Positions 1 through 12,877 of a DNA stretch of 25,634 nt are shown here, piece after piece (position 1 is the first letter of the stretch; every line of letters starts with the position of its first letter). A program made the translations under genes and the position numbers. The DNA lies in the IMG/VR virus record IMGVR_UViG_3300020042_005688, positions 1 through 25,634 of that record; one strand, 5' to 3'. The DNA comes from a virus (Duplodnaviria > Caudoviricetes). The notes under the pieces are model-generated. The model did no database searches and was not told where the DNA came from. It worked only from the letters and a program-made list of their open reading frames with translations.

Positions 1-108
1 TTTGCAGAGGTAAGCTACATCACTGGAGAATTATTGCGAGCAAGCATAGAGCCAATGTTCCACACTGGATATAAAACAACCATTAAAAAATTCATCGAAG
101 AACAATGA
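1..108 (+). CDS. 3' end of a hypothetical protein (partial)
   Basis: Frame 1 is open (FAEVSYITG...KKFIEEQ) to TGA at 106-108, which overlaps the next ATG (ATGA). Confidence 0.6.
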   Translation, partial: FAEVSYITGELLRASIEPMFHTGYKTTIKKFIEEQ

Positions 109-911
109 AAAACGCAACTATTGAATACAACTTGGGCAGAGCTTACTACTCACGCTCCGCATCACCGACGAACCTGTCAGCACCTGTCAGCAAATCACTA
201 CTATGGGATTTCAACCAATCACCCTACAAATGGCGGCACAGCACAGGCAGAGAGTCAACCCGCGCTATGGATCTTGGCACGCTGATTCATGCAGCGATAC
301 TAGAGCCGAATATCCCAATGGATGAAATCGCCGCAGTATCGCCGTTCTCTGATTTCCGCACTAAAGCCGCACAGGAATGGCGTGACGATGCGCGAGCGAT
401 GGGGAAAATGATTGCCACAGATGCCGACATTCGCGCTGCTGGTGGGTGTGAAATGGTTTTCTCCGAGGACTACGCACAACGCTTTGCAGGTGATTACAAA
501 TCCGAGGTGGCAGTCTTTGCCACTATCGGCGCAACAGAGATAAAGGGCATGATTGATCTTGTGCCTGACAATCTCGATTTACTGGTGGATCTGAAAACTA
601 CCGCCAAAATCGGCAGTTTGCGGAACATTACCAATACCATCATCGACCGAGGTTATCACTGGCAAGCTGCGTTATATCTCGACCTGTGGAACGCTGCCAC
701 AGAGGAGAAACGCAAACGCTTTGTAATATGCTTCCTCGAGGTGGATGCACCGCACGAATCGGCATGGGTGGAAGTCTCCCCAGAGCTGATCGAGGCAGGG
801 CGCATCGGATACATGAACGCACTTGCGAAGTGGCAAGCGTGCTGTGCCACGGACACATGGCCGCGACAGCATGAAGGGATTACCACTATCGAGAAGCCAG
901 CTTACTTATGA
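105..911 (+). CDS. RecE/exonuclease VIII-like PD-(D/E)XK nuclease (DUF3799-like)
   Basis: Motifs AMDLGTLIHAAILEP, KGMIDLVP, DLKTT, YHWQAALY, typical of phage ExoVIII C-terminal nuclease domains. Confidence 0.85.
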   Translation: MKNATIEYNLGRAYYSRSASPTNLSAPVSKSLLWDFNQSPYKWRHSTGRESTRAMDLGTLIHAAILEPNIPMDEIAAVSPFSDFRTKAAQEWRDDARAMGKMIATDADIRAAGGCEMVFSEDYAQRFAGDYKSEVAVFATIGATEIKGMIDLVPDNLDLLVDLKTTAKIGSLRNITNTIIDRGYHWQAALYLDLWNAATEEKRKRFVICFLEVDAPHESAWVEVSPELIEAGRIGYMNALAKWQACCATDTWPRQHEGITTIEKPAYL

Positions 912-2247: not shown

Positions 2248-2284
2248 AACCCTGCTAGAATCCCACTAGCGGGGTTTTTGTTTC
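2248..2284 (+). terminator. Intrinsic terminator at the convergence of two operons
   Basis: Stem AACCCTGCTAG/CTAGCGGGGTT with a 7-nt loop, followed by TTTGTTTC. Confidence 0.75.
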
Positions 2285-2473
2285 TCCTTCCACTAAAAAC
2301 GTGGCATACTCGGCGGTGACGATGCGAGCAGCGGCAAGATTGATGTCTTCAGTGCCTATGCAATGAGCGCACATGGGGGATGCTACATTGATCCAATCGG
2401 CAGGATTTCCATCTCTACACGCTCCAAAATCGACTAATGCAAGAGCGTCTTTTAATTGTTGATTTTCGTTCAT
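2255..2473 (-). CDS. Hypothetical protein
   Basis: 72 aa, ATGA-coupled to the upstream minus-strand gene; 3' end runs into the terminator. Confidence 0.5.
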   Translation of the reverse strand: MNENQQLKDALALVDFGACRDGNPADWINVASPMCAHCIGTEDINLAAARIVTAEYATFLVEGETKTPLVGF

Positions 2474-2784
2474 CTTGTTTCTTTCGTTGTTTGGTTGTTT
2501 TTAGTGTAATATGGTCGAACTTCTTTCTGCCATCGTCGTAAAAATGAATCCTCACCATCGTCACCACTAACAAGCCAATCGACCCGTTGAGCCATTTCAG
2601 CAGCTTGGCGTAAAGTATGAACTGTTTCTCTGAATTTTTCGATCACTTCAGGCGGGTAATTTCTCCCGCGAGTATCACCCCATTCATTTTTTGAATCGTC
2701 ATTGTTCGATTCAATTAATTCGTGAATGTCCCTAGCAATGTCTTCAATTCTATATTGTTGGTATTCGAAATGTCCTCCGCTCAT
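2470..2784 (-). CDS. Conserved phage hypothetical protein
   Basis: MSGGHFEYQQYRI...RVDWLVSGDDGEDSF, a pattern I recognise as recurrent in phages; coupled to genes on both sides. Confidence 0.75.
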   Translation of the reverse strand: MSGGHFEYQQYRIEDIARDIHELIESNNDDSKNEWGDTRGRNYPPEVIEKFRETVHTLRQAAEMAQRVDWLVSGDDGEDSFLRRWQKEVRPYYTKNNQTTKETR

Positions 2785-3047
2785 TTTGTTTCTTCTATGT
2801 TGTTTATTATTTTATCAATTTTTGTTGCCATTTCAATACTTCCACAGCACCCACAGGTTGATGTAGCTTTTTTAATATTATTTATTGCAACTCTCAGAAC
2901 ATCTCGTTGATTTATTGCCTTGGCAAGCTCGCGTTCCATAGATGTCATTAAAGTTAACGCCTCTTGCATTATTGCTGGCAACATTATTGGCTCAATCTCG
3001 TCTGGCCATTGATTGCAAAACGCATCAACTCTCGGTGTGTCACTCAT
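2781..3047 (-). CDS. MSDTP/LEREL-family coiled-coil protein (leftward copy)
   Basis: MSDTPRVD...MERELAKAINQRDVL; SD AAAGGAG; paralogous to the genes at 5082-6334. Confidence 0.75.
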   Translation of the reverse strand: MSDTPRVDAFCNQWPDEIEPIMLPAIMQEALTLMTSMERELAKAINQRDVLRVAINNIKKATSTCGCCGSIEMATKIDKIINNIEETK

Positions 3048-3558
3048 TGGAATCTCCTTTCATTTTATTGTTTGGCAGTAGGATAAATGCCGCAATGTGT
3101 CTACCTGTTCCTTTGCCTTTAGTGCCGTCCTCGGTCGCTAACCATCGAACGTCTCCAAGATTGCGAACATTTGTTGCTCCTGTTGCTTTGAGCATCATCA
3201 GCACCCATTTATCTACAGGATAAACAACCACTGACAGCTTTCCTTTTGCTTGTTCTTCAATGGCTTTTCTCATCCATGCTGTTGGTCCTTTCTTTTTTCC
3301 TTCATGGATAATTGAACCGAATGGTGGATTTACCCAGTTACGTTGCCCCCATTCACAAGTCAATCCGTCAAAATCATGCGGCTTAGGACAAGGGCATGGG
3401 TCGAAATCAAATGGTCCAAACTCTGCGACTAGTTCAGCTATTGCTGGTTCATCCCATGGTGTTAGCCAATAATGCTTACCGTCACTGCCATTTCCTTTGT
3501 GAAACTTGTTTTCTTCTGGACGTATTTGAGATTGATGTTTTTTATTATCTGTATTCAT
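3040..3558 (-). CDS. Phage DNA N6-adenine methyltransferase (Dam-like, phage-type family)
   Basis: WLTP, FDFDPCP, DGL..EW and catalytic NPPF motifs; SD AAAGGAA upstream. Confidence 0.85.
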   Translation of the reverse strand: MNTDNKKHQSQIRPEENKFHKGNGSDGKHYWLTPWDEPAIAELVAEFGPFDFDPCPCPKPHDFDGLTCEWGQRNWVNPPFGSIIHEGKKKGPTAWMRKAIEEQAKGKLSVVVYPVDKWVLMMLKATGATNVRNLGDVRWLATEDGTKGKGTGRHIAAFILLPNNKMKGDSNE

Positions 3559-4079: not shown

Positions 4080-4108
4080 TTGACTGAAGACATAAGCCGA
4101 TGTAGAAA
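4080..4108 (+). promoter_or_regulatory. Rightward sigma70-like promoter
   Basis: TTGACT-N17-TAGAAA preceded by a long A-rich UP-like tract; ATG follows 9 nt after the -10. Confidence 0.55.
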
Positions 4109-4117
4109 TCTCTCGCC

Positions 4118-4318
4118 ATGAATACCAAACAAGAACGAGCGCAGAAGCTCGCAATAATCGAAGCCACAGTGAAAGTGAAAACTCACAAACTTATGCATGT
4201 CAAGATGCCGCTGGAGCTACACGCTAAAATCAAATCTGAGGCAGATGTTTTAGGCATGAAGCTGGGACGTTATGTCTGCGGATTGATCGAGAAAGGTAAG
4301 GAGGCAAGCCGTGATTGA
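4118..4318 (+). CDS. Ribbon-helix-helix (Arc/CopG-like) DNA-binding protein
   Basis: KLMHVKMPLELHAKIKSEADVLGMKLGRYVCGLIE fits a strand-helix-helix pattern; first gene after the promoter. Confidence 0.65.
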   Translation: MNTKQERAQKLAIIEATVKVKTHKLMHVKMPLELHAKIKSEADVLGMKLGRYVCGLIEKGKEASRD

Positions 4319-4430
4319 CTTTATCAAAACTCATCCAGTGTTTGTTGTATTTTGCCTCATCATAGGTTTTTACATGGTAGCTTTTACAATCGGTCTAATT
4401 AACCCACCAAAAGATGACTATGAAGACTAA
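4311..4430 (+). CDS. 39-aa single-TM micropeptide (below ORF-track cutoff)
   Basis: GTG start with SD AAGGAGG; MIDFIKTHPVFVVFCLIIGFYMVAFTIGLINPPKDDYED. Confidence 0.6.
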   Translation: MIDFIKTHPVFVVFCLIIGFYMVAFTIGLINPPKDDYED

Positions 4431-4503
4431 AATACTAGAAGCATTTTACACGCTCGCCACAGCAGTAACAGCGGCATTTATCGTCTGGGTAATTTTACCA
4501 TAA
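4420..4503 (+). CDS. 27-aa hydrophobic micropeptide
   Basis: MKTKILEAFYTLATAVTAAFIVWVILP; fills the gap to the next gene at 4508. Confidence 0.5.
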   Translation: MKTKILEAFYTLATAVTAAFIVWVILP

Positions 4504-4507
4504 CCAA

Positions 4508-4756
4508 ATGAACACACCAACACCATCACACGCAGAGCGTATGCAAGCAATTATTGATCTTGCTTTTGACGCTGAAAACGCACTAGACGATAATGACACA
4601 GTGCAGGTCAAAGTTGTAGAGCTTGCTGACTTTGTTAGGCACTATTGGGAGCTATACCAGGCACTGAAAGATCAAGAGCTTGAATTATTAAGCCAAGCAT
4701 CTGTATTGCAGCAGAGAGGCAACAAGATTGAACGACTACTGAAAGGAAAGCTATGA
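4508..4756 (+). CDS. Hypothetical helical protein
   Basis: 82 aa, ATGA-coupled to the next gene. Confidence 0.65.
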   Translation: MNTPTPSHAERMQAIIDLAFDAENALDDNDTVQVKVVELADFVRHYWELYQALKDQELELLSQASVLQQRGNKIERLLKGKL

Positions 4757-5085
4757 GTGCAAAAATGAAAACATCGCCGACACAGCTGTCCTTGGCGCAC
4801 CTGCGCAAGACCTGTGACTTAGTTGAAGTCGTGGAGAAGTGGAATAGCTTCGTTAAGATACGCCAAGACCTATTCGGCATCATAGACATACTGGCATTGA
4901 GCGGCACTGAGACAATAGCCGTGCAAAGCACCTCATGGAGCAATGTGAAAAGCCGTGTAGACAAGATGAGCGAGTCACCTAACATCTCAGCAATTCGTGC
5001 AGCAGGATGGAAAATCCTCGTTCACGGATGGAAGAAGAACACAAAAACAAATAGATACGAACTGAAAGAAATAGACATATCATGA
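4753..5085 (+). CDS. Small PD-(D/E)XK-fold nuclease (resolvase-like)
   Basis: VEK...QDLFGIIDILAL...IAVQST...ILVHGW resembles restriction-endonuclease-fold phage proteins. Confidence 0.65.
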   Translation: MSAKMKTSPTQLSLAHLRKTCDLVEVVEKWNSFVKIRQDLFGIIDILALSGTETIAVQSTSWSNVKSRVDKMSESPNISAIRAAGWKILVHGWKKNTKTNRYELKEIDIS

Positions 5086-5444
5086 GCAACACACCGAGAA
5101 CAGATAGATACGAACTGCATTACATAGAGAATGGAAATGTAAGCAAATTGATTAACCTAGCTAGAGAACTAGAACGCGAGCTTGCCGACATGACCAAACA
5201 GCGCGATACGTTGGCTGAGGCTATCAAATCAGCGGGGATAACCAAGCAGCGCAATGCGTTGGCTAAGGCTATCAAATCAGCGGGGATAACCAAGCAGCGC
5301 AATGCGTTGGCGGAGGCTATCAAATCAGCGGGGATGATTTATATTCCTAACAGCGGTGGCGCATATCAAGCTGGATGGAGAGATGCTGTCAGTTGGATCA
5401 ATCAGCAAGCCCTAGTTTTCGTGAAAGGAGGATCACATGAGTGA
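5082..5444 (+). CDS. MSDTP/LEREL-family protein 1
   Basis: MSNTPRTD...LERELADMTKQRD...KGGSHE; contains three copies of a 16-aa repeat. Confidence 0.75.
   Translation: MSNTPRTDRYELHYIENGNVSKLINLARELERELADMTKQRDTLAEAIKSAGITKQRNALAKAIKSAGITKQRNALAEAIKSAGMIYIPNSGGAYQAGWRDAVSWINQQALVFVKGGSHE
5193..5336 (+). repeat. 3 x 48-bp in-frame tandem repeat
   Basis: Units start at 5193, 5241 and 5289: ACCAAGCAGCGCAATGCGTTGGCT(A/G)AGGCTATCAAATCAGCGGGGATA with few mismatches. Confidence 0.95.
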
Positions 5445-5979
5445 CACACCGACACCAATAACAGATGAATTAGCAAAAGAATTTGCAGGAAAACGAGTGT
5501 CCAGCAAAGAAGCTGGTGCAGTTTGGAATCTTTGCAGGGATTTAGAACGTGAGCTTGCCGAGGCGAAACAAAAAAGAAGCGATGTTAATAAACACACAAC
5601 AACCAACAACCAACAACCAACAACCAATAAGACTATGAATAATATATTTGAACGAATCGAAATTGCTGAATCCCTTGGCTATATTAGCTACGGAAATTGT
5701 AGTGACACTCCAGAGCAAAAAGCCATTGCGAAATGGTGGAATGCTGAAAACCCTAGCTCATTAGTAGAATTGCCTACGCTCAACGAGTTGACTATTGAGA
5801 AGCTGGAGCGCGAGCTAGCCGACATGACCGAGCAGCGCGATGCGTTGGCTGAGGCTTTAGATACGCTATTGGCTGTTGTTGGACTAACTCCGATTGCAGG
5901 GAATAAGCAAGCATTACAGGAAGCATTTGACCAAGGAAACAAAGCCCTAGCAGCCACGAAAGGAGGGAACGATGAGTGA
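5437..5979 (+). CDS. MSDTP/LEREL-family protein 2 (two LERELA blocks; possible internal start at 5635)
   Basis: SD AAAGGAGG; ATGAGTGA overlap; ends ALAATKGGNDE. Confidence 0.75.
   Translation: MSDTPTPITDELAKEFAGKRVSSKEAGAVWNLCRDLERELAEAKQKRSDVNKHTTTNNQQPTTNKTMNNIFERIEIAESLGYISYGNCSDTPEQKAIAKWWNAENPSSLVELPTLNELTIEKLERELADMTEQRDALAEALDTLLAVVGLTPIAGNKQALQEAFDQGNKALAATKGGNDE
5597..5624 (+). repeat. (CAACAAC)4 microsatellite
   Basis: Four exact 7-mers inside the CDS, ending 10 nt before the in-frame ATG at 5635. Confidence 0.9.
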
Positions 5980-6334
5980 TACACCCCGCACGGACTCGGC
6001 AATCCGCAACTCAGGCGGCCAGTGGAGCTATGGCCTTCGCGAAACATGCGAGCAACTCGAACGCGAGCTTGACGAGGCGAAGGAAAAGATGCTCAACAAT
6101 CCATTTTGCGTGGCATGCAAAGAACCTGATTGCTGTGTTAGCGGCGATGGAACATGCGCGTTGATACGAAAATATTTGACAGTAGACGAAACCACCAAAC
6201 AGCGCGATGCGTTGGCTAATGCTTTGGAATCACTTGCTAAAGCGATCATCAGCGGAGTTCCATACGACATTATTGATTTGCTTGATGATTTAGAGCAAGC
6301 CCTAGCCACACTGAAAGGAGGGAGCCATGAGTGA
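5972..6334 (+). CDS. MSDTP/LEREL-family protein 3 with Cys-rich insert
   Basis: MSDTPRTD...LERELDEAK...CVACKEPDCC...C...TKQRDALA...KGGSHE. Confidence 0.75.
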   Translation: MSDTPRTDSAIRNSGGQWSYGLRETCEQLERELDEAKEKMLNNPFCVACKEPDCCVSGDGTCALIRKYLTVDETTKQRDALANALESLAKAIISGVPYDIIDLLDDLEQALATLKGGSHE

Positions 6335-6530
6335 ACGCGCCTTGGAACTTGCCACCGCGCTGGAGGCTGAGCTTTTGGCGCAGTTTGAAAAGCTCGATGC
6401 AACGATGCAGCGACCAGAGTTTGCATCGTTTCCGATCGATGAGCGCAACAAGATCGAGCGCAAGCACTCAGAGATCAGCGGGTTATTGACCAAATCGGAT
6501 TTTATCAAGTATCAAATATCGAGATTATGA
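6327..6530 (+). CDS. Hypothetical protein
   Basis: SD AAAGGAGG and ATGAGTGA junction; 67 aa. Confidence 0.65.
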   Translation: MSERALELATALEAELLAQFEKLDATMQRPEFASFPIDERNKIERKHSEISGLLTKSDFIKYQISRL

Positions 6531-6796
6531 CACCAGAACAACAACTATCGGAATCCCTGCTTGCAGCCTGCAAAGCGGCGGGGATTGAATCGCCCAGGTA
6601 TATCGCGCAGGATAAAGATGGCGAGGTATGGAGCTTTGATTTGAAACCAAGCAAAAAACAAACGACTTGGGACGGTGATAAGGCACAAAAAATTGATCAC
6701 CCGCCCTACGCCGACGACTGGAAAGAGAGCTTGCTGGAGTGGGTTGAGCCGCAAGAAGAGCCACTAGCGGACGTTCTTGCGCGGCATGGTGACTGA
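6527..6796 (+). CDS. Phage hypothetical protein
   Basis: YIAQDKDGEVW...P...W motif; ATGA-coupled. Confidence 0.65.
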   Translation: MTPEQQLSESLLAACKAAGIESPRYIAQDKDGEVWSFDLKPSKKQTTWDGDKAQKIDHPPYADDWKESLLEWVEPQEEPLADVLARHGD

Positions 6797-6838
6797 AATG
6801 TCGTGGGACGGCATGGCACGACGACATAAACAAAAACA

Positions 6839-7120
6839 ATGAAAATCTCCGACATCATCGAAATAGTCGCGGCAGAAATGGACGTGGATTCAACGCTTGT
6901 GACTAGCAAGACGCGGGTGCAGGCAGTAGCAGACGCTCGCGCAGTCGTGCAGGCAATCATGCGCGACCGTGGTTGGACATACGCTCGGATCGGGCTAGTT
7001 TTCTCTGCCGGTCACGATGCGGTCTGGAACAATTGCCGCAAGATCGAACAGGCACGAGCCATGGTTAAAGCTTACGATGCGGCAAAGACCGCGCTAACAA
7101 TCTCCCAGCCGAGTGGCTGA
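6839..7120 (+). CDS. DnaA domain IV-like HTH protein
   Basis: IIEIVA...V...SKTR.QAVADAR...TYARIGLVF..GHDAV matches the DnaA C-terminal fold pattern. Confidence 0.75.
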   Translation: MKISDIIEIVAAEMDVDSTLVTSKTRVQAVADARAVVQAIMRDRGWTYARIGLVFSAGHDAVWNNCRKIEQARAMVKAYDAAKTALTISQPSG

Positions 7121-7131
7121 CGGGAACTAAT

Positions 7132-7172
7132 GCCTCTAGACCTCGCAATGTTTCAGGCGCGGGGCTAGGGGC
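7132..7172 (+). other. Imperfect GC-rich hairpin at the early/late boundary
   Basis: GCCTCTAG/CTAGGGGC plus CCTCGC/GCGGGG with G-U pairs on the + strand; no U-tract. Confidence 0.5.
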
Positions 7173-7192
7173 GAACTCGCAACATTTGACGC

Positions 7193-7220
7193 TTGCCAAG
7201 CGCGCAAATTTCTGTATGTT
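7193..7220 (+). promoter_or_regulatory. Putative promoter, probably leaderless
   Basis: TTGCCA-N16-TATGTT, 6 nt before GTG 7227. Confidence 0.45.
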
Positions 7221-7226
7221 GCTTCC

Positions 7227-7502
7227 GTGACCACTACCACGGTGCATGCCATTGTTGGCAAAATCTACATGCTCGGAATCGGGATCAGCGAAGCGCAAAT
7301 CTTCGTCATCACCGATGGGAAAACTATGCGCGAAATCGCCACGCAAGCCAAAGCAAGCTTAGTTTTTGTCAACAATAAGCTCTGGAGCCTGACTCAAAAG
7401 GGCTTCATCGCCAAACGTGCAGGCAGACCTTCGACTTACCACCTGACCGCAGCAGGCAAGCGAGCAATCGCCGAACTGACCAGCGCAGAATCCACACGAT
7501 GA
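7227..7502 (+). CDS. Winged-helix (MarR/TrmB-like) DNA-binding protein
   Basis: TMREIATQAKASLVFVNNKLWSLTQKGFI...YHLTAAGK. Confidence 0.75.
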   Translation: MTTTTVHAIVGKIYMLGIGISEAQIFVITDGKTMREIATQAKASLVFVNNKLWSLTQKGFIAKRAGRPSTYHLTAAGKRAIAELTSAESTR

Positions 7503-9130
7503 ACTTATTCCTCCAAGCAATCGAAAACCTATCACGGCGCAAAGTAACGCCTTCGTGGTTCCGGTGGCGTGAGTGGTCAGCGATGGCACCGGCAATCCGC
7601 AATCGTTCGTTTTTCAGCGCCACAGTGACCTCAGCGCGCGTTCTGAACAAGATGCGCAACATGTTGCTGGATTGGCAAGCGGACGCCACAGAGGAGATCG
7701 TGGACGTAAATACGGGGCAGACCGTTACAGCCTACAAAGAAACAGGACTCGCCAAGTTCCGCGAAAAGTCGGCAGAGTTTTTGATCCAAGAAGGATTGGC
7801 AACACCGGCAGACTACAAGGACCAGAAAATCACCAACGTGATTTCAAACGCTCGCTTACAGTTGATTTACAATACCAACCTAGAGCAAGCTTCGACCTTC
7901 GCGCAGTGGCAAGGCAGGATGCGCAATGAGGACTGGCTCAATCTCAACCCCGCAGCACGCTTCGTCCGACGCCCGGGTGCACGCATCAAGCGGCAGCGCC
8001 ATGTCGAAGCCGAGGGCGACGTTCGACGATGGGACGACTTCGCCTATTGGCAGTTCCAAAACGCAGCGGACATTGGAGGCTTCGACGTTCCATGGGGTCC
8101 GTTTGGCTTCAACAGCTACATGATTCAGGAGCCAGTGAAAAGAGCCGAAGCCGAGCGCCGCAAGCTGGTCCGAAAAGGCGAACGAGTCAAAGCTCCGAAC
8201 GTCGCGCAATTCGGCGTTGACCTCGGAAAGCAATTCAATGCCGGTGTCGATGCGAACATTGATGACCTCACGCCCGAACTGGCAAACGAGGCACGGCAGG
8301 CGATCACTGACAGGCTCGGACCGCAGGCAATCGGTCGCGATGGCAAACCCACGCTCGATGCGCTGAAGCAGGCGCTAAGCGGCAACTACAAACCGATTGC
8401 AGCACCAGCGCCAGCGGCTAAGCCATTGCCAGTGCCTAGAAAGCGTGCAACGAAGAAGCCAGAACCAGAGACGGGCGAAACTGTTCCAGAAGGATCGAAA
8501 GTGGCAGACAAGATCGTATTCGGCAGGATCATAGGAAAAGAGAAAGAAGTCAGGAAGAAGTGGGACAAGGTAGCGGAAACAATCGACTCAATTCATGGAG
8601 ACGGTCCATTGCCACCAGCGCCGGTAATACATCAGGAATCTAGGGGATCTGTGAATGGACAATACCGGCGATTCGACAACGAAATAACCACATTCAAAGA
8701 AGAAGCGATCCCGATGACATTGACTCACGAAATCGGGCATTGGATCGATTATAGAGGATTCAGAAACATACCCGGTGCAGAGCCTCCAATGAAGGGAGAT
8801 AAGGTTTTTGCTTCGTATTCTCCACTATTCAAGAATTTCATAAAGATAGCTAAAAACAGCAGCAAGATAAAAGAGATCAAAACAGACTATCTCACTGCAA
8901 AATCTAAAAGATACCTGACATCGAATCACGAAATTTTTGCGCGTGCTTATGCTCAATACATTGCCACAAAGTCGAAGAATCCAGAAATGCTCGAAAACCT
9001 AAAAAATAGGCAGACCGGAGTGAAAGGGAACATCTATCCCGATCAGTGGGATGATGACGACTTTGTTCCGCTATATAACGAAATCGAAACCATATTCAAA
9101 CAAATCGGATGGCTAAAAATATCAAAATGA
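7499..9130 (+). CDS. MuF/gp7-like minor head protein with C-terminal zincin-like metallopeptidase domain
   Basis: N-terminal RSFFSATV, ARLQLIYNTN, R.RH, PWGPFGFNS (MuF-like); Pro/Ala/Lys linker; C-terminal HEIGH and downstream EIFARAYAQY. Confidence 0.75.
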   Translation: MNLFLQAIENLSRRKVTPSWFRWREWSAMAPAIRNRSFFSATVTSARVLNKMRNMLLDWQADATEEIVDVNTGQTVTAYKETGLAKFREKSAEFLIQEGLATPADYKDQKITNVISNARLQLIYNTNLEQASTFAQWQGRMRNEDWLNLNPAARFVRRPGARIKRQRHVEAEGDVRRWDDFAYWQFQNAADIGGFDVPWGPFGFNSYMIQEPVKRAEAERRKLVRKGERVKAPNVAQFGVDLGKQFNAGVDANIDDLTPELANEARQAITDRLGPQAIGRDGKPTLDALKQALSGNYKPIAAPAPAAKPLPVPRKRATKKPEPETGETVPEGSKVADKIVFGRIIGKEKEVRKKWDKVAETIDSIHGDGPLPPAPVIHQESRGSVNGQYRRFDNEITTFKEEAIPMTLTHEIGHWIDYRGFRNIPGAEPPMKGDKVFASYSPLFKNFIKIAKNSSKIKEIKTDYLTAKSKRYLTSNHEIFARAYAQYIATKSKNPEMLENLKNRQTGVKGNIYPDQWDDDDFVPLYNEIETIFKQIGWLKISK

Positions 9131-11239: not shown

Positions 11240-12877
11240 ATGCTCACCATGACCGCAGACGAACGAAAGGGCATCGTAGCGCCTTTGCCAGCTTCCTACC
11301 GCACGCAGGACTATGACCTTGCCAATGTAACACCAGAGCAGGTGCGTAGCATTCTGCGCAACGTGCGCACCGGCAAGCTGGAGGATCAAGATCGGCTTTT
11401 CCGCATGATGGTCGATTCGTGGTCTCGCCTGCGCAAGTGCATCAATGAAGTGGCTGGCAACGTGACGGCTCTCGACATCATCATCAAGCCAGCTATTCGC
11501 GAAGGCGCCGAGGAGCCAACACCGCAGGCATTGCAGATCCACGAGACAGTAGAACGAGCGCTTGAATCGTATGCACCGCGTCCGAGTCATTGGGAACTGG
11601 ACACAAAGGGAATGATGAAGGCGCTCATTGACGCCTACGCGAAAGGCATCAGCGTCGTGGAAATCATCTGGCACACCGAGAACGGCATCGTTTCACCGCG
11701 TTGCTACGCTCCAGTGCCTGCTAAATATCTCGCCTATCCATCCGCATCGAACGAGATCGACAGGCTCATGATGGCACCGAACGGAGTCAACTACGACACG
11801 CTCATTGACTTCCCGCCCGACAAGTTCCTGATCGCCATCTGGCAACAAGGCGGCTGTCACCCGATCCATTCTGCAAACCTCCGCGCTCTCACGAAGTTCT
11901 GGCTCGGTGCAATCTACGGGCTGGGCTGGTTCATGCAATACGCGCAGCTCTATTCGATCCCTTGGCGACATGCGGAAACCGACGGCAGCGATGAAGCGAT
12001 GATGAAGGCGCAGGAGATGCTAGAGAACATTGGCACGAGTGGCTACGCAGTCACAGGACCGGGTGTGAAGTTCTCGATCATGGACGGCATCAAGGGCGGC
12101 GAATCGTTGCCACAGGTGGCGCTCATGAATGAGTCAGACAAAGCTTGCGACATTCTCATGCTCGGACAAACTCTCACCACAGACGTGGGCGACAGCGGAA
12201 GCCGAGCGCTTGGCGACGTCCACGCTACGGTCCGCGGCGACATCTTACAGGCGGTGGCAACATGGATCGGGCAGGTCATCACCACGCAGTTGATCCCAGC
12301 AATCGTGCGCATGAACTACGGTGCCAGCATCGCCAGCGAGGACATGCCTTACGCTGAAATCGTAATACCGAAGCCGAAGGATGAGAAGGCAATCGCAGAG
12401 CGCATCAAGATCGTCACGAAGGACATCGGACTGCCAGTCTCGAACAAGTGGATCTACAACGAACTAGGAGTCGAAGAACCTCAAGAGGGCGAGGCACTAT
12501 TCGGCGAAGTCGAAGATCCGCTTCCGTTGCTTCCTGAAATCACCGAGGCGGCGCGCGCTGACATTGACCTGCGTCCGACCGAGGACATGGCGAAGGCAGC
12601 ACAAGACGCTCTCGAAATCCGCAGGCAGAAGCCAGCATCACAGCGTGGTATGACATCGGTCGGCATCGCACGAGCAAGGGACATCTCCAATCGTTCTGAG
12701 CTATCGCCCGAGACAGTCAAGCGCATGGTATCATTCTTTGCTCGCCATGAAATCGACAAGAAAGGCGAGACATGGGATGAGAAAGGAAAAGGCTGGCAAG
12801 CATGGAATGGATGGGGCGGCGATGCTGGCAGAGAGTGGGCAAACGCAAAGCTTAAGCAAATCGAAAATGGACGATGA
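11240..12877 (+). CDS. Portal protein (Mu gp29/DUF935-like) with extra C-terminal domain
   Basis: DAYAKGISVVEIIW, WFMQYAQLYSIPWR, MLGQTLTT..G.SGSRALGDVH motifs; follows terL. Confidence 0.9.
   Translation: MLTMTADERKGIVAPLPASYRTQDYDLANVTPEQVRSILRNVRTGKLEDQDRLFRMMVDSWSRLRKCINEVAGNVTALDIIIKPAIREGAEEPTPQALQIHETVERALESYAPRPSHWELDTKGMMKALIDAYAKGISVVEIIWHTENGIVSPRCYAPVPAKYLAYPSASNEIDRLMMAPNGVNYDTLIDFPPDKFLIAIWQQGGCHPIHSANLRALTKFWLGAIYGLGWFMQYAQLYSIPWRHAETDGSDEAMMKAQEMLENIGTSGYAVTGPGVKFSIMDGIKGGESLPQVALMNESDKACDILMLGQTLTTDVGDSGSRALGDVHATVRGDILQAVATWIGQVITTQLIPAIVRMNYGASIASEDMPYAEIVIPKPKDEKAIAERIKIVTKDIGLPVSNKWIYNELGVEEPQEGEALFGEVEDPLPLLPEITEAARADIDLRPTEDMAKAAQDALEIRRQKPASQRGMTSVGIARARDISNRSELSPETVKRMVSFFARHEIDKKGETWDEKGKGWQAWNGWGGDAGREWANAKLKQIENGR

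Follow-up and report, generated by a model that had tools for sequence, protein, structure and literature searches.

Can a bacteriophage build new genes by joining short coding segments at a handful of fixed DNA blocks, and by which route would these segments then be exchanged? An array of small genes in the contig of a tailed phage from freshwater raises this question. The window that we analysed is the whole virus record, 25.6 kb (25,634 nucleotides) in length and 77% complete as judged by CheckV; its genes comprise small early-type ones and those for an ExoVIII-like nuclease, a terminase, a Mu-like portal, a protease, a capsid and the tail. The original prediction, derived from the letters of the window, held that three adjacent genes share short blocks in a fixed order, with unrelated in-frame segments between them, and that these blocks serve as recombination anchors for the swapping of peptide modules on a coiled-coil scaffold. 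Its reading of the blocks and of the swapped modules is supported by our data, and we regard the combinatorial mosaicism of this gene family as real and very well supported.

The array comprises four gene units (beginning at 5082, 5437, 5635 and 5972), one more than predicted; the minus strand encodes a fifth copy (3047-2781). In the general gene plan, a start block (A) and a head module lead to block B; up to five middle modules, or none, separate it from block C, and a tail module and block J come last, the gene end, an SD and the overlapping stop and next start being combined in block J. Blocks A, B and C are intragenic and are read in one frame, while block J connects neighbouring genes. 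The first gene (5082..5444, plus strand; 120 aa) consists of block A, a head, block B (5172), three copies of block C, a tail and block J, the latter at 5407..5444 (plus strand) with the SD-like GAAAGGAGG. Block C had been assigned to 5193, 5827 and 6194; these positions hold, and its additional copies in gene 5082 belong to a tandem triplication of 48 nt (16 aa) that starts at block C (5190..5335, plus strand). This repeat is present in 3, 2 or 1 copies in the relatives P0187, P0188 and P0189, where the tail of gene 5082 is found behind the head of gene 5635. The extra unit is hidden in the open reading frame 5437-5979, which holds two units in one frame: unit 2a (5437..5634, plus strand; block A, head, block B at 5545), which in the window allele runs in-frame into the 5635 gene, and unit 2b (5635..5979, plus strand; 114 aa), with its own head lacking block A, blocks B and C (5806-5856), a tail and block J (5942-5979). 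The relatives P0187-P0191 begin at the ATG at 5635. An A/C-rich heptamer repeat (5597..5627, plus strand) links the two units, and its copy number toggles their in-frame fusion; in five of eight runs the linker allele is 7 nt shorter, and the 5437 frame then stops after 64 aa. It is possible that this repeat acts as a slippage switch. Gene 5972 (5972..6334, plus strand; 120 aa) contains block A, a head, block B (6059), a Cys-rich middle module (approximately 6080-6193), block C (6194), a tail and block J (6297-6334). Downstream, a conserved 67-aa gene outside the family (6327..6530, plus strand) closes the array in many relatives; upstream, a conserved 110-aa gene (4753..5085, plus strand) precedes it in some of them (L008, L051, L055 and L072).

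The block identities originally counted by eye (46/51, 21/23 and 23/24) were reproduced exactly by our recount. Block J matches the window three times (5407, 5942 and 6297) versus 0.00 matches expected in 100 shuffles, and block C matches five times with at most two mismatches versus 0.00 expected. For block B we found seven matches versus 1.11 expected; five of these, including all four sites of the array named in the prediction and a further copy in the minus-strand gene, reside within family genes, and chance probably accounts for the other two, at 6721 and 11552. Self-BLAST recovered matches at the blocks alone and none between the intervening segments, as the prediction had it. Most genes of the window have A/C-rich leaders without an obvious SD, and GAAAGGAG occurs in the window solely at block J and 5' of the minus-strand copy. 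In several relatives (L001, L003, L007, L014, L051 and others), genes that lie 5' of the arrays and do not belong to the family end in a block-J-like peptide; through block J, unrelated small genes seem to be drawn into this exchange pool as well.

The dispersed copy (2781..3061, minus strand; 88 aa) carries an SD, block A and block B (2936-2924), and its SD, start and block B are identical in kind to those of the array genes. It is part of a group of four genes (2255-3558) on the minus strand, the rest of the genome being read on the plus strand; this group encodes a Dam-like methyltransferase, the family copy, a phrog_6724 gene and a 72-aa gene, and its GC content is 0.41-0.44 versus about 0.52 in the structural part of the window. 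A recent inversion of this group via inverted blocks was considered and rejected, as a gene neighbouring on it has the same orientation relative to the exonuclease in G023. In several related phages, long open reading frames overlap in two frames across DNA methyltransferase genes (L001, 829-1581; L009, 1266-2596; L116, 4030-4998), and in G023 both overlapping frames match methyltransferase PHROGs.

Pattern scans of viral and metagenome contigs yielded 92 loci with 96 distinct genes, those of the window included, and protein searches added first 42 and then 139 further sequences. At 50% identity the family falls into 287 clusters at E<=1e-10 and into 2927 at 1e-3, many of the latter probably being generic coiled coils. 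Its members are 55-309 aa long, and some of them have no tail module (L017). Among 272 distinct proteins we parsed 231 heads of 84 types, 208 middle modules of 105 types and 233 tails of 134 types; in a smaller gene set, different module types were 14-17% identical in the median. With Chao1 estimates of about 330 head, 245 middle and 330 tail types, the module repertoire is far from fully sampled. The family also extends beyond close kin of the window: the carriers G004, G005 and G011, whose DNA resembles that of the window little or not at all, have terminases and replication genes unlike those of the window, and the head genes differ as well in G004 and G011, the former without DNA similarity to the window and the latter with 47 nt in common.

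As predicted, the variable segments reassort among related phages, with breakpoints in the blocks and the frame kept. The 195 genes with both ends parsed form 162 head-tail combinations, and more than one partner was found for 19 of the 21 recurrent heads and for 27 of the 33 recurrent tails. Among the parts of the window, the head of unit 2a occurs with other tails in L006 and L008, and the head of unit 2b is joined to three other tail types and its tail to three other heads; in P0187-P0191, the 5635 head is combined either with the 5082 tail (3, 2 or 1 repeats) or with a 5972-like tail. Four-gamete quartets cannot be obtained by descent without exchange. The 272 proteins contain 25 such quartets for head and tail, 39 for head and middle and 76 for middle and tail, counts to be read with the cluster representatives being enriched for unlike combinations. 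Under complete linkage of 192 genes, seven head-tail quartets persist at 75% identity and three at 80%, one strict quartet being formed by gene 5972 together with P0001, P0016 and P0035. Some linkage remains: same-head pairs share a tail in 50 of 438 cases versus 16 expected, in a sample biased by the queries. The long members P0054 and P0080 stack four or five middle modules; judged by eye, two of these are in opposite order in the two proteins, which points to a non-colinear exchange.

Mosaicism is equally evident at the level of whole genes. At least one fifth of the words of region 4100-7200 are present in 13 public runs, all of them freshwater metagenomes, and contigs from independent runs carry swapped, added or absent arrays; these variants were scored on assembled contigs rather than reads, and joints with short sides were left uncounted. 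Fixed gene order with full-length orthology, named beforehand as a finding that would refute the prediction, is absent in the relatives. The conserved 6327 gene (median DNA identity of orthologues, 86%) is preceded by 19 distinct two-gene arrangements after identical ones were collapsed, with L019 and L034 having the nearest gene in common. L072, with 99.15% identity to the window along 1411 nt, contains an extra 104-aa gene at block J. In all four runs of one set, a contig connects 5451 with 6062 through 75 different letters, creating a form with a new head and without genes 5437 and 5635; this joint is absent among the joints listed for a second set of four runs. In run X20 of this second set, the end of the 4753-5085 gene (5085) is joined to 6292, and the array is missing. 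At least one variant can do without the array, which is what one would expect of accessory host-interaction genes and equally of neutral ones. Exchange of whole modules among relatives was also seen (G013, G023 and G012): G013 has head and tail genes in common with the window (capsid 99%) but possesses RecT, and in G023 the exonuclease and early genes are shared with the window, but the capsid gene is another one.

Where do the exchanged segments end? Internal alignment ends, 227 in total and contributed by 67 of the 96 genes, fall within 6 nt of a block in 175 cases versus 34% expected. Any two genes with a module in common have alignment ends that drift into the blocks they share, and what these data locate is therefore the end of the modules at the blocks, not the exact base of the crossover. 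Copies of the blocks flanked by different modules use the same codon in 0.62 (B, n=22), 0.83 and 0.82 (C, n=7 and n=6) and 0.78 (J, n=13) of the cases versus 0.29-0.33 expected; for this test, loci fetched by the SD/start pattern only were used, with the last codon of J still being part of that query. Constraint on the amino acids alone does therefore not explain the blocks, whose synonymous sites are unsaturated; saturation had been named as a result that would refute the prediction. The notion of the blocks as anchors stands as far as exchange is concerned, but their codon sharing is no higher than that of an ordinary flanking orthologue (0.73). The blocks behave like recently shared DNA; an extra selection on them as recombination sites is not demonstrated with the flank at this value.

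The block-to-block DNA segments are in frame and open in 86 of 91 cases. The spacing from B to C is in the minimal heptad register in 37 of 86 cases, that from C to C is a multiple of seven in 31 of 64, and that from B to B is in register in 8 of 17, counts that contain related alleles not fully collapsed; from C to B, no heptad pattern was seen in seven cases. AlphaFold2 models P0016 (pLDDT 76) as a helix, a 39-residue helix that runs unbroken through blocks B and C, and another helix. The AlphaFold2 model of gene 5972 is all-helical at low confidence (pLDDT 64, pTM 0.33).

Twelve long records were searched for annealing proteins, 11 of them carriers; G024 was left out of the carrier counts as a chance pattern match with 74% GC and no family gene. 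Erf was detected in four and RecT in two, and thus one or the other in 6 of the 11 carriers; neither of these two families was found in the remaining five, including the complete genomes G005 and G011. In G023 and G012, Erf or RecT adjoins an exonuclease. The link originally drawn between the array and the RecE/ExoVIII-like exonuclease of the window (105..911, plus strand; PF12684, phrog_412), which lies outside the array and is a candidate partner of an annealing protein, is indirect. Close relatives pair this enzyme with Erf, whose gene in G023 directly precedes an exonuclease 95% identical to that of the window, but others have RecT, and no annealing protein was seen in the incomplete window record, in which the frame 5' of the exonuclease is unlike the end of Erf in G023. 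A search of 26 records, 21 of them less than 90% complete, gave no tyrosine integrase (PF00589), a serine resolvase (PF00239) in one record and no reverse transcriptase (PF00078), the latter also being absent from the five near-complete records. PHROGs revealed an integrase in G004 that the PF00589 search had missed, so that this search is not fully sensitive; the complete G023 has no integrase by either test. No site-specific recombinase or reverse transcriptase common to the carriers was found among these records. Of the original term 'system', the combinatorial exchange stands, but dedicated machinery was not found.

Since dedicated enzymes of this kind were not detected and Erf or RecT is present among the carriers, we favour general annealing at imperfect blocks of 15-50 nt. 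According to the available part of one study, Rad52-like recombinases act on short, diverged homology, and 23-27 bp are quoted for Red-beta (PMC3945230). Exact runs shared between the window's own genes measure 13-18 nt, and 1312 pairs of genes with different modules have a median exact run of 14 nt, with 14% of the pairs reaching 20 nt; these values lie below those quoted for Red-beta, and single exchange events may therefore be rare. In our model, a crossover would take place within two copies of the same block, either between two phages infecting the same cell or between paralogues within a genome, and would swap, add, duplicate or delete the intervening sequence. Crossovers in B and C would alter modules, those in J and A whole genes, and reading frame and translational coupling would survive both. 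The exchange probably relies on homologous annealing of the Erf/RecT type by the phage, and the predicted coiled-coil scaffold would likely present variable peptides that interact with the host. That the exchange proceeds through general phage recombination we consider likely, and homologous annealing at short blocks, rather than a programmed switch, is our best reading. The enzyme, an oligomeric coiled coil and the expression of these genes are elements of the model that we infer.

How do other explanations fare against these data? Old paralogues, whose blocks are alike through amino-acid constraint only and that never exchanged segments, could account for blocks encoding a heptad-like helix and an SD, both of which are constrained; this explanation, however, is refuted by the four-gamete quartets unless these are assembly errors, and it conflicts with a synonymous sharing two to three times the expectation and with pieces of the window joined to one another in new ways, so that we deem it extremely improbable. 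The proviso leads to the suspicion that the recombinants are chimeras created by assembly at repeats, given that all data are metagenomic assemblies and many of the joints listed have sides below 30 nt. Yet exact repeats reach 30 nt in just 1.7% of the different-module pairs, the same combinations recur in separate assemblies, and the 5451-6062 form with its 75 new letters appears in four studies, in three of which its shorter side measures 80-150 nt; chimeras are accordingly a very unlikely source of the pattern. A dedicated, programmed diversifier resembling a shufflon, an integron or a retroelement, with the blocks as recognition sites, would be in keeping with short, stereotyped blocks that are near-invariant at several synonymous positions and at which breakpoints cluster. 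The recombinase and reverse transcriptase counts given above argue against it, as do the four unrelated block sequences in place of a single site and products that include duplications and deletions, and we assign it a low probability.

More serious is the proposal of nearly neutral churn, in which the blocks are remnants of an ancestral coiled-coil gene between which recombination shuffles segments, most combinations doing little. Such churn fits an array that can be missing altogether (the 5085-6292 join of run X20), members that vary from 55 to 309 aa and may dispense with the tail, and a codon sharing in the blocks that does not exceed that of the flanking gene; moreover, in-frame crossovers at blocks preserve the frame automatically. 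Against it speak the 86 of 91 open segments and the non-random heptad spacing, the recurrence of the same modules as full protein sequences in many assemblies, and the spread of the family over phages unrelated in DNA (G004; G011 with its 47 nt) that have other replication and head genes. We consider neutral churn unlikely, while giving it more weight than any of the preceding explanations. On balance, we favour a module-combining phage gene family whose blocks are joined by annealing of the Erf/RecT type and whose predicted coiled coils would present host-interacting peptides.

The lambdoid Ea22/Ead proteins, to which the original prediction drew a loose analogy, consist of a variable N-terminal part, a central coiled coil and an exchangeable C-terminal domain and are mosaic, as described in the available part of PMC10834534. 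All three parts of this plan, the coiled coil as a prediction, recur in the family studied here, which differs by modules of about 20-45 aa, up to five per gene, and by coupled arrays with a junction block. The analogy does not extend to homology: none of 139 family proteins matched PF13935 at E<=1e-4 (lambda Ea22 as positive control, 1.1e-28), PF13935 was absent among the best five matches of each of 40 more family proteins (E<=0.1), hhalign of the family profile against lambda Ea22 gave a probability of 0.3% (E 0.2), and an Atlas feature score of 0.78 to the Ead_Ea22 cluster is inside the chance range. Ea22 is tetrameric and affects the choice between lysis and lysogeny. Oad2, an anti-OLD protein and relative of EaE, can be fused to Ead/Ea22, according to the available part of 10.64898/2026.07.10.737580. 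It is by analogy with this plan and this fusion that we suggest a host-interaction function for the family. That its modules bind or decoy host proteins, for instance defence factors, is the weakest step of our argument, a tentative idea that we hold to be possible rather than probable.

Adhesin gp38 of T-even phages offers a second parallel, as variable segments from a limited palette are set between its conserved motifs and exchange occurs in or near the motifs (PMC3157838, available part). Variable segments are exchanged at conserved motifs here as well. However, gp38 is a single virion gene with glycine-rich motifs, its segments are constant in number and order and its receptor role is known, whereas our family has several paralogues per genome, a variable number of modules and no glycine-rich motifs, and is located outside the structural module. 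Homology to gp38 was not detected, there being no such PHROG match; the blocks are helical, and the family genes precede the head module. PeSL, which mediate shuffling in the hyperplastic regions of T4-like phages, are short conserved DNA elements that serve as exchange points between sequences without relationship and carry expression signals (PMC4122927, available part), a part that block J plays for translation. PeSL are intergenic promoter-terminator elements, whereas block J is coding sequence that includes the SD, the stop and the start, and B and C are intragenic; between 3500 and 7600 we counted six promoter-like and five terminator-like sites versus 5.4 and 4.6 expected, none at J, using the sigma-70 consensus only. 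Rad52-like recombination (Red-beta, RecT and Erf) would provide the likely enzymology, with Erf or RecT beside an exonuclease in G023 and G012, but the homologies found here are shorter than those assayed in the available part of PMC3945230 and are reused as fixed, typed joints. A shufflon or integron would call for a linked site-specific recombinase common to the carriers, not found in the 26 records, and a diversity-generating retroelement for a reverse transcriptase, likewise absent from these records, and for a template/variable repeat pair; the window has no long near-identical repeat pair beyond the blocks. The family belongs neither to Ea22/Ead nor to gp38 or PeSL, yet the same logic of shuffling is at work.

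No Pfam or PHROG family describes the family proteins; scattered coiled-coil matches, among them bMERB near the cut-off, were rejected as generic. Searched with tblastn against cultured phages, gene 5972 had no match at E<=1 and P0038 gave noise alone (E 4-9), Foldseek against BFVD returned no match for any of 96 proteins at E<=0.001, and the cluster look-up produced 'hypothetical protein' names plus one generic Zn-ribbon name. In the literature covered, with subscription papers mostly outside it and supplements excluded, neither the family nor its block motifs were found described. The family is new; the principle of block-and-module mosaicism is already known. New, too, are the nesting of intragenic joints with those at gene junctions, a module number that varies with the register kept, and the size of the shared pool.

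The best match of the window's capsid among cultured phages, Akkermansia phage Chantilly, is 32% identical and may be taken as a weak hint at a host among the Verrucomicrobiota. GTDB genomes yielded four pattern matches, all of them unrelated proteins, and therefore neither a prophage with the family nor a host assignment; an Atlas look-up likewise yielded no host. Among the structural genes, a minor head protein (7499-9130) weakly matches LPD1 in its C-terminal part, and the Mu-like portal (11240-12877) has a C-terminal phrog_2859 extension.

Most descriptions of phage mosaicism concern exchange between genes, or else the interior of one well-studied gene; in this family it is at work on two nested levels, with a module repertoire common to phages that have different core genes. 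When such genes are grouped by overall identity, a single family breaks up into hundreds of 'hypothetical' clusters (287 at the stringent cut-off). In its most far-reaching form, our reading would amount to a combinatorial peptide library, in which four nested joints are kept for in-frame, in-register and coupled swapping without a dedicated recombinase, and through which several unrelated freshwater lineages share hundreds of host-binding or counter-defence modules on a coiled coil; this we consider rather doubtful, if worth stating. The locus makes a question about linker sequences testable: are short homologies retained for the useful exchange that they promote, or do they simply endure? 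Should the modules bind host proteins, each of them would be a candidate counter-defence or host-takeover peptide from an uncultured freshwater phage-host system, and the scaffold would represent a natural modular display format.
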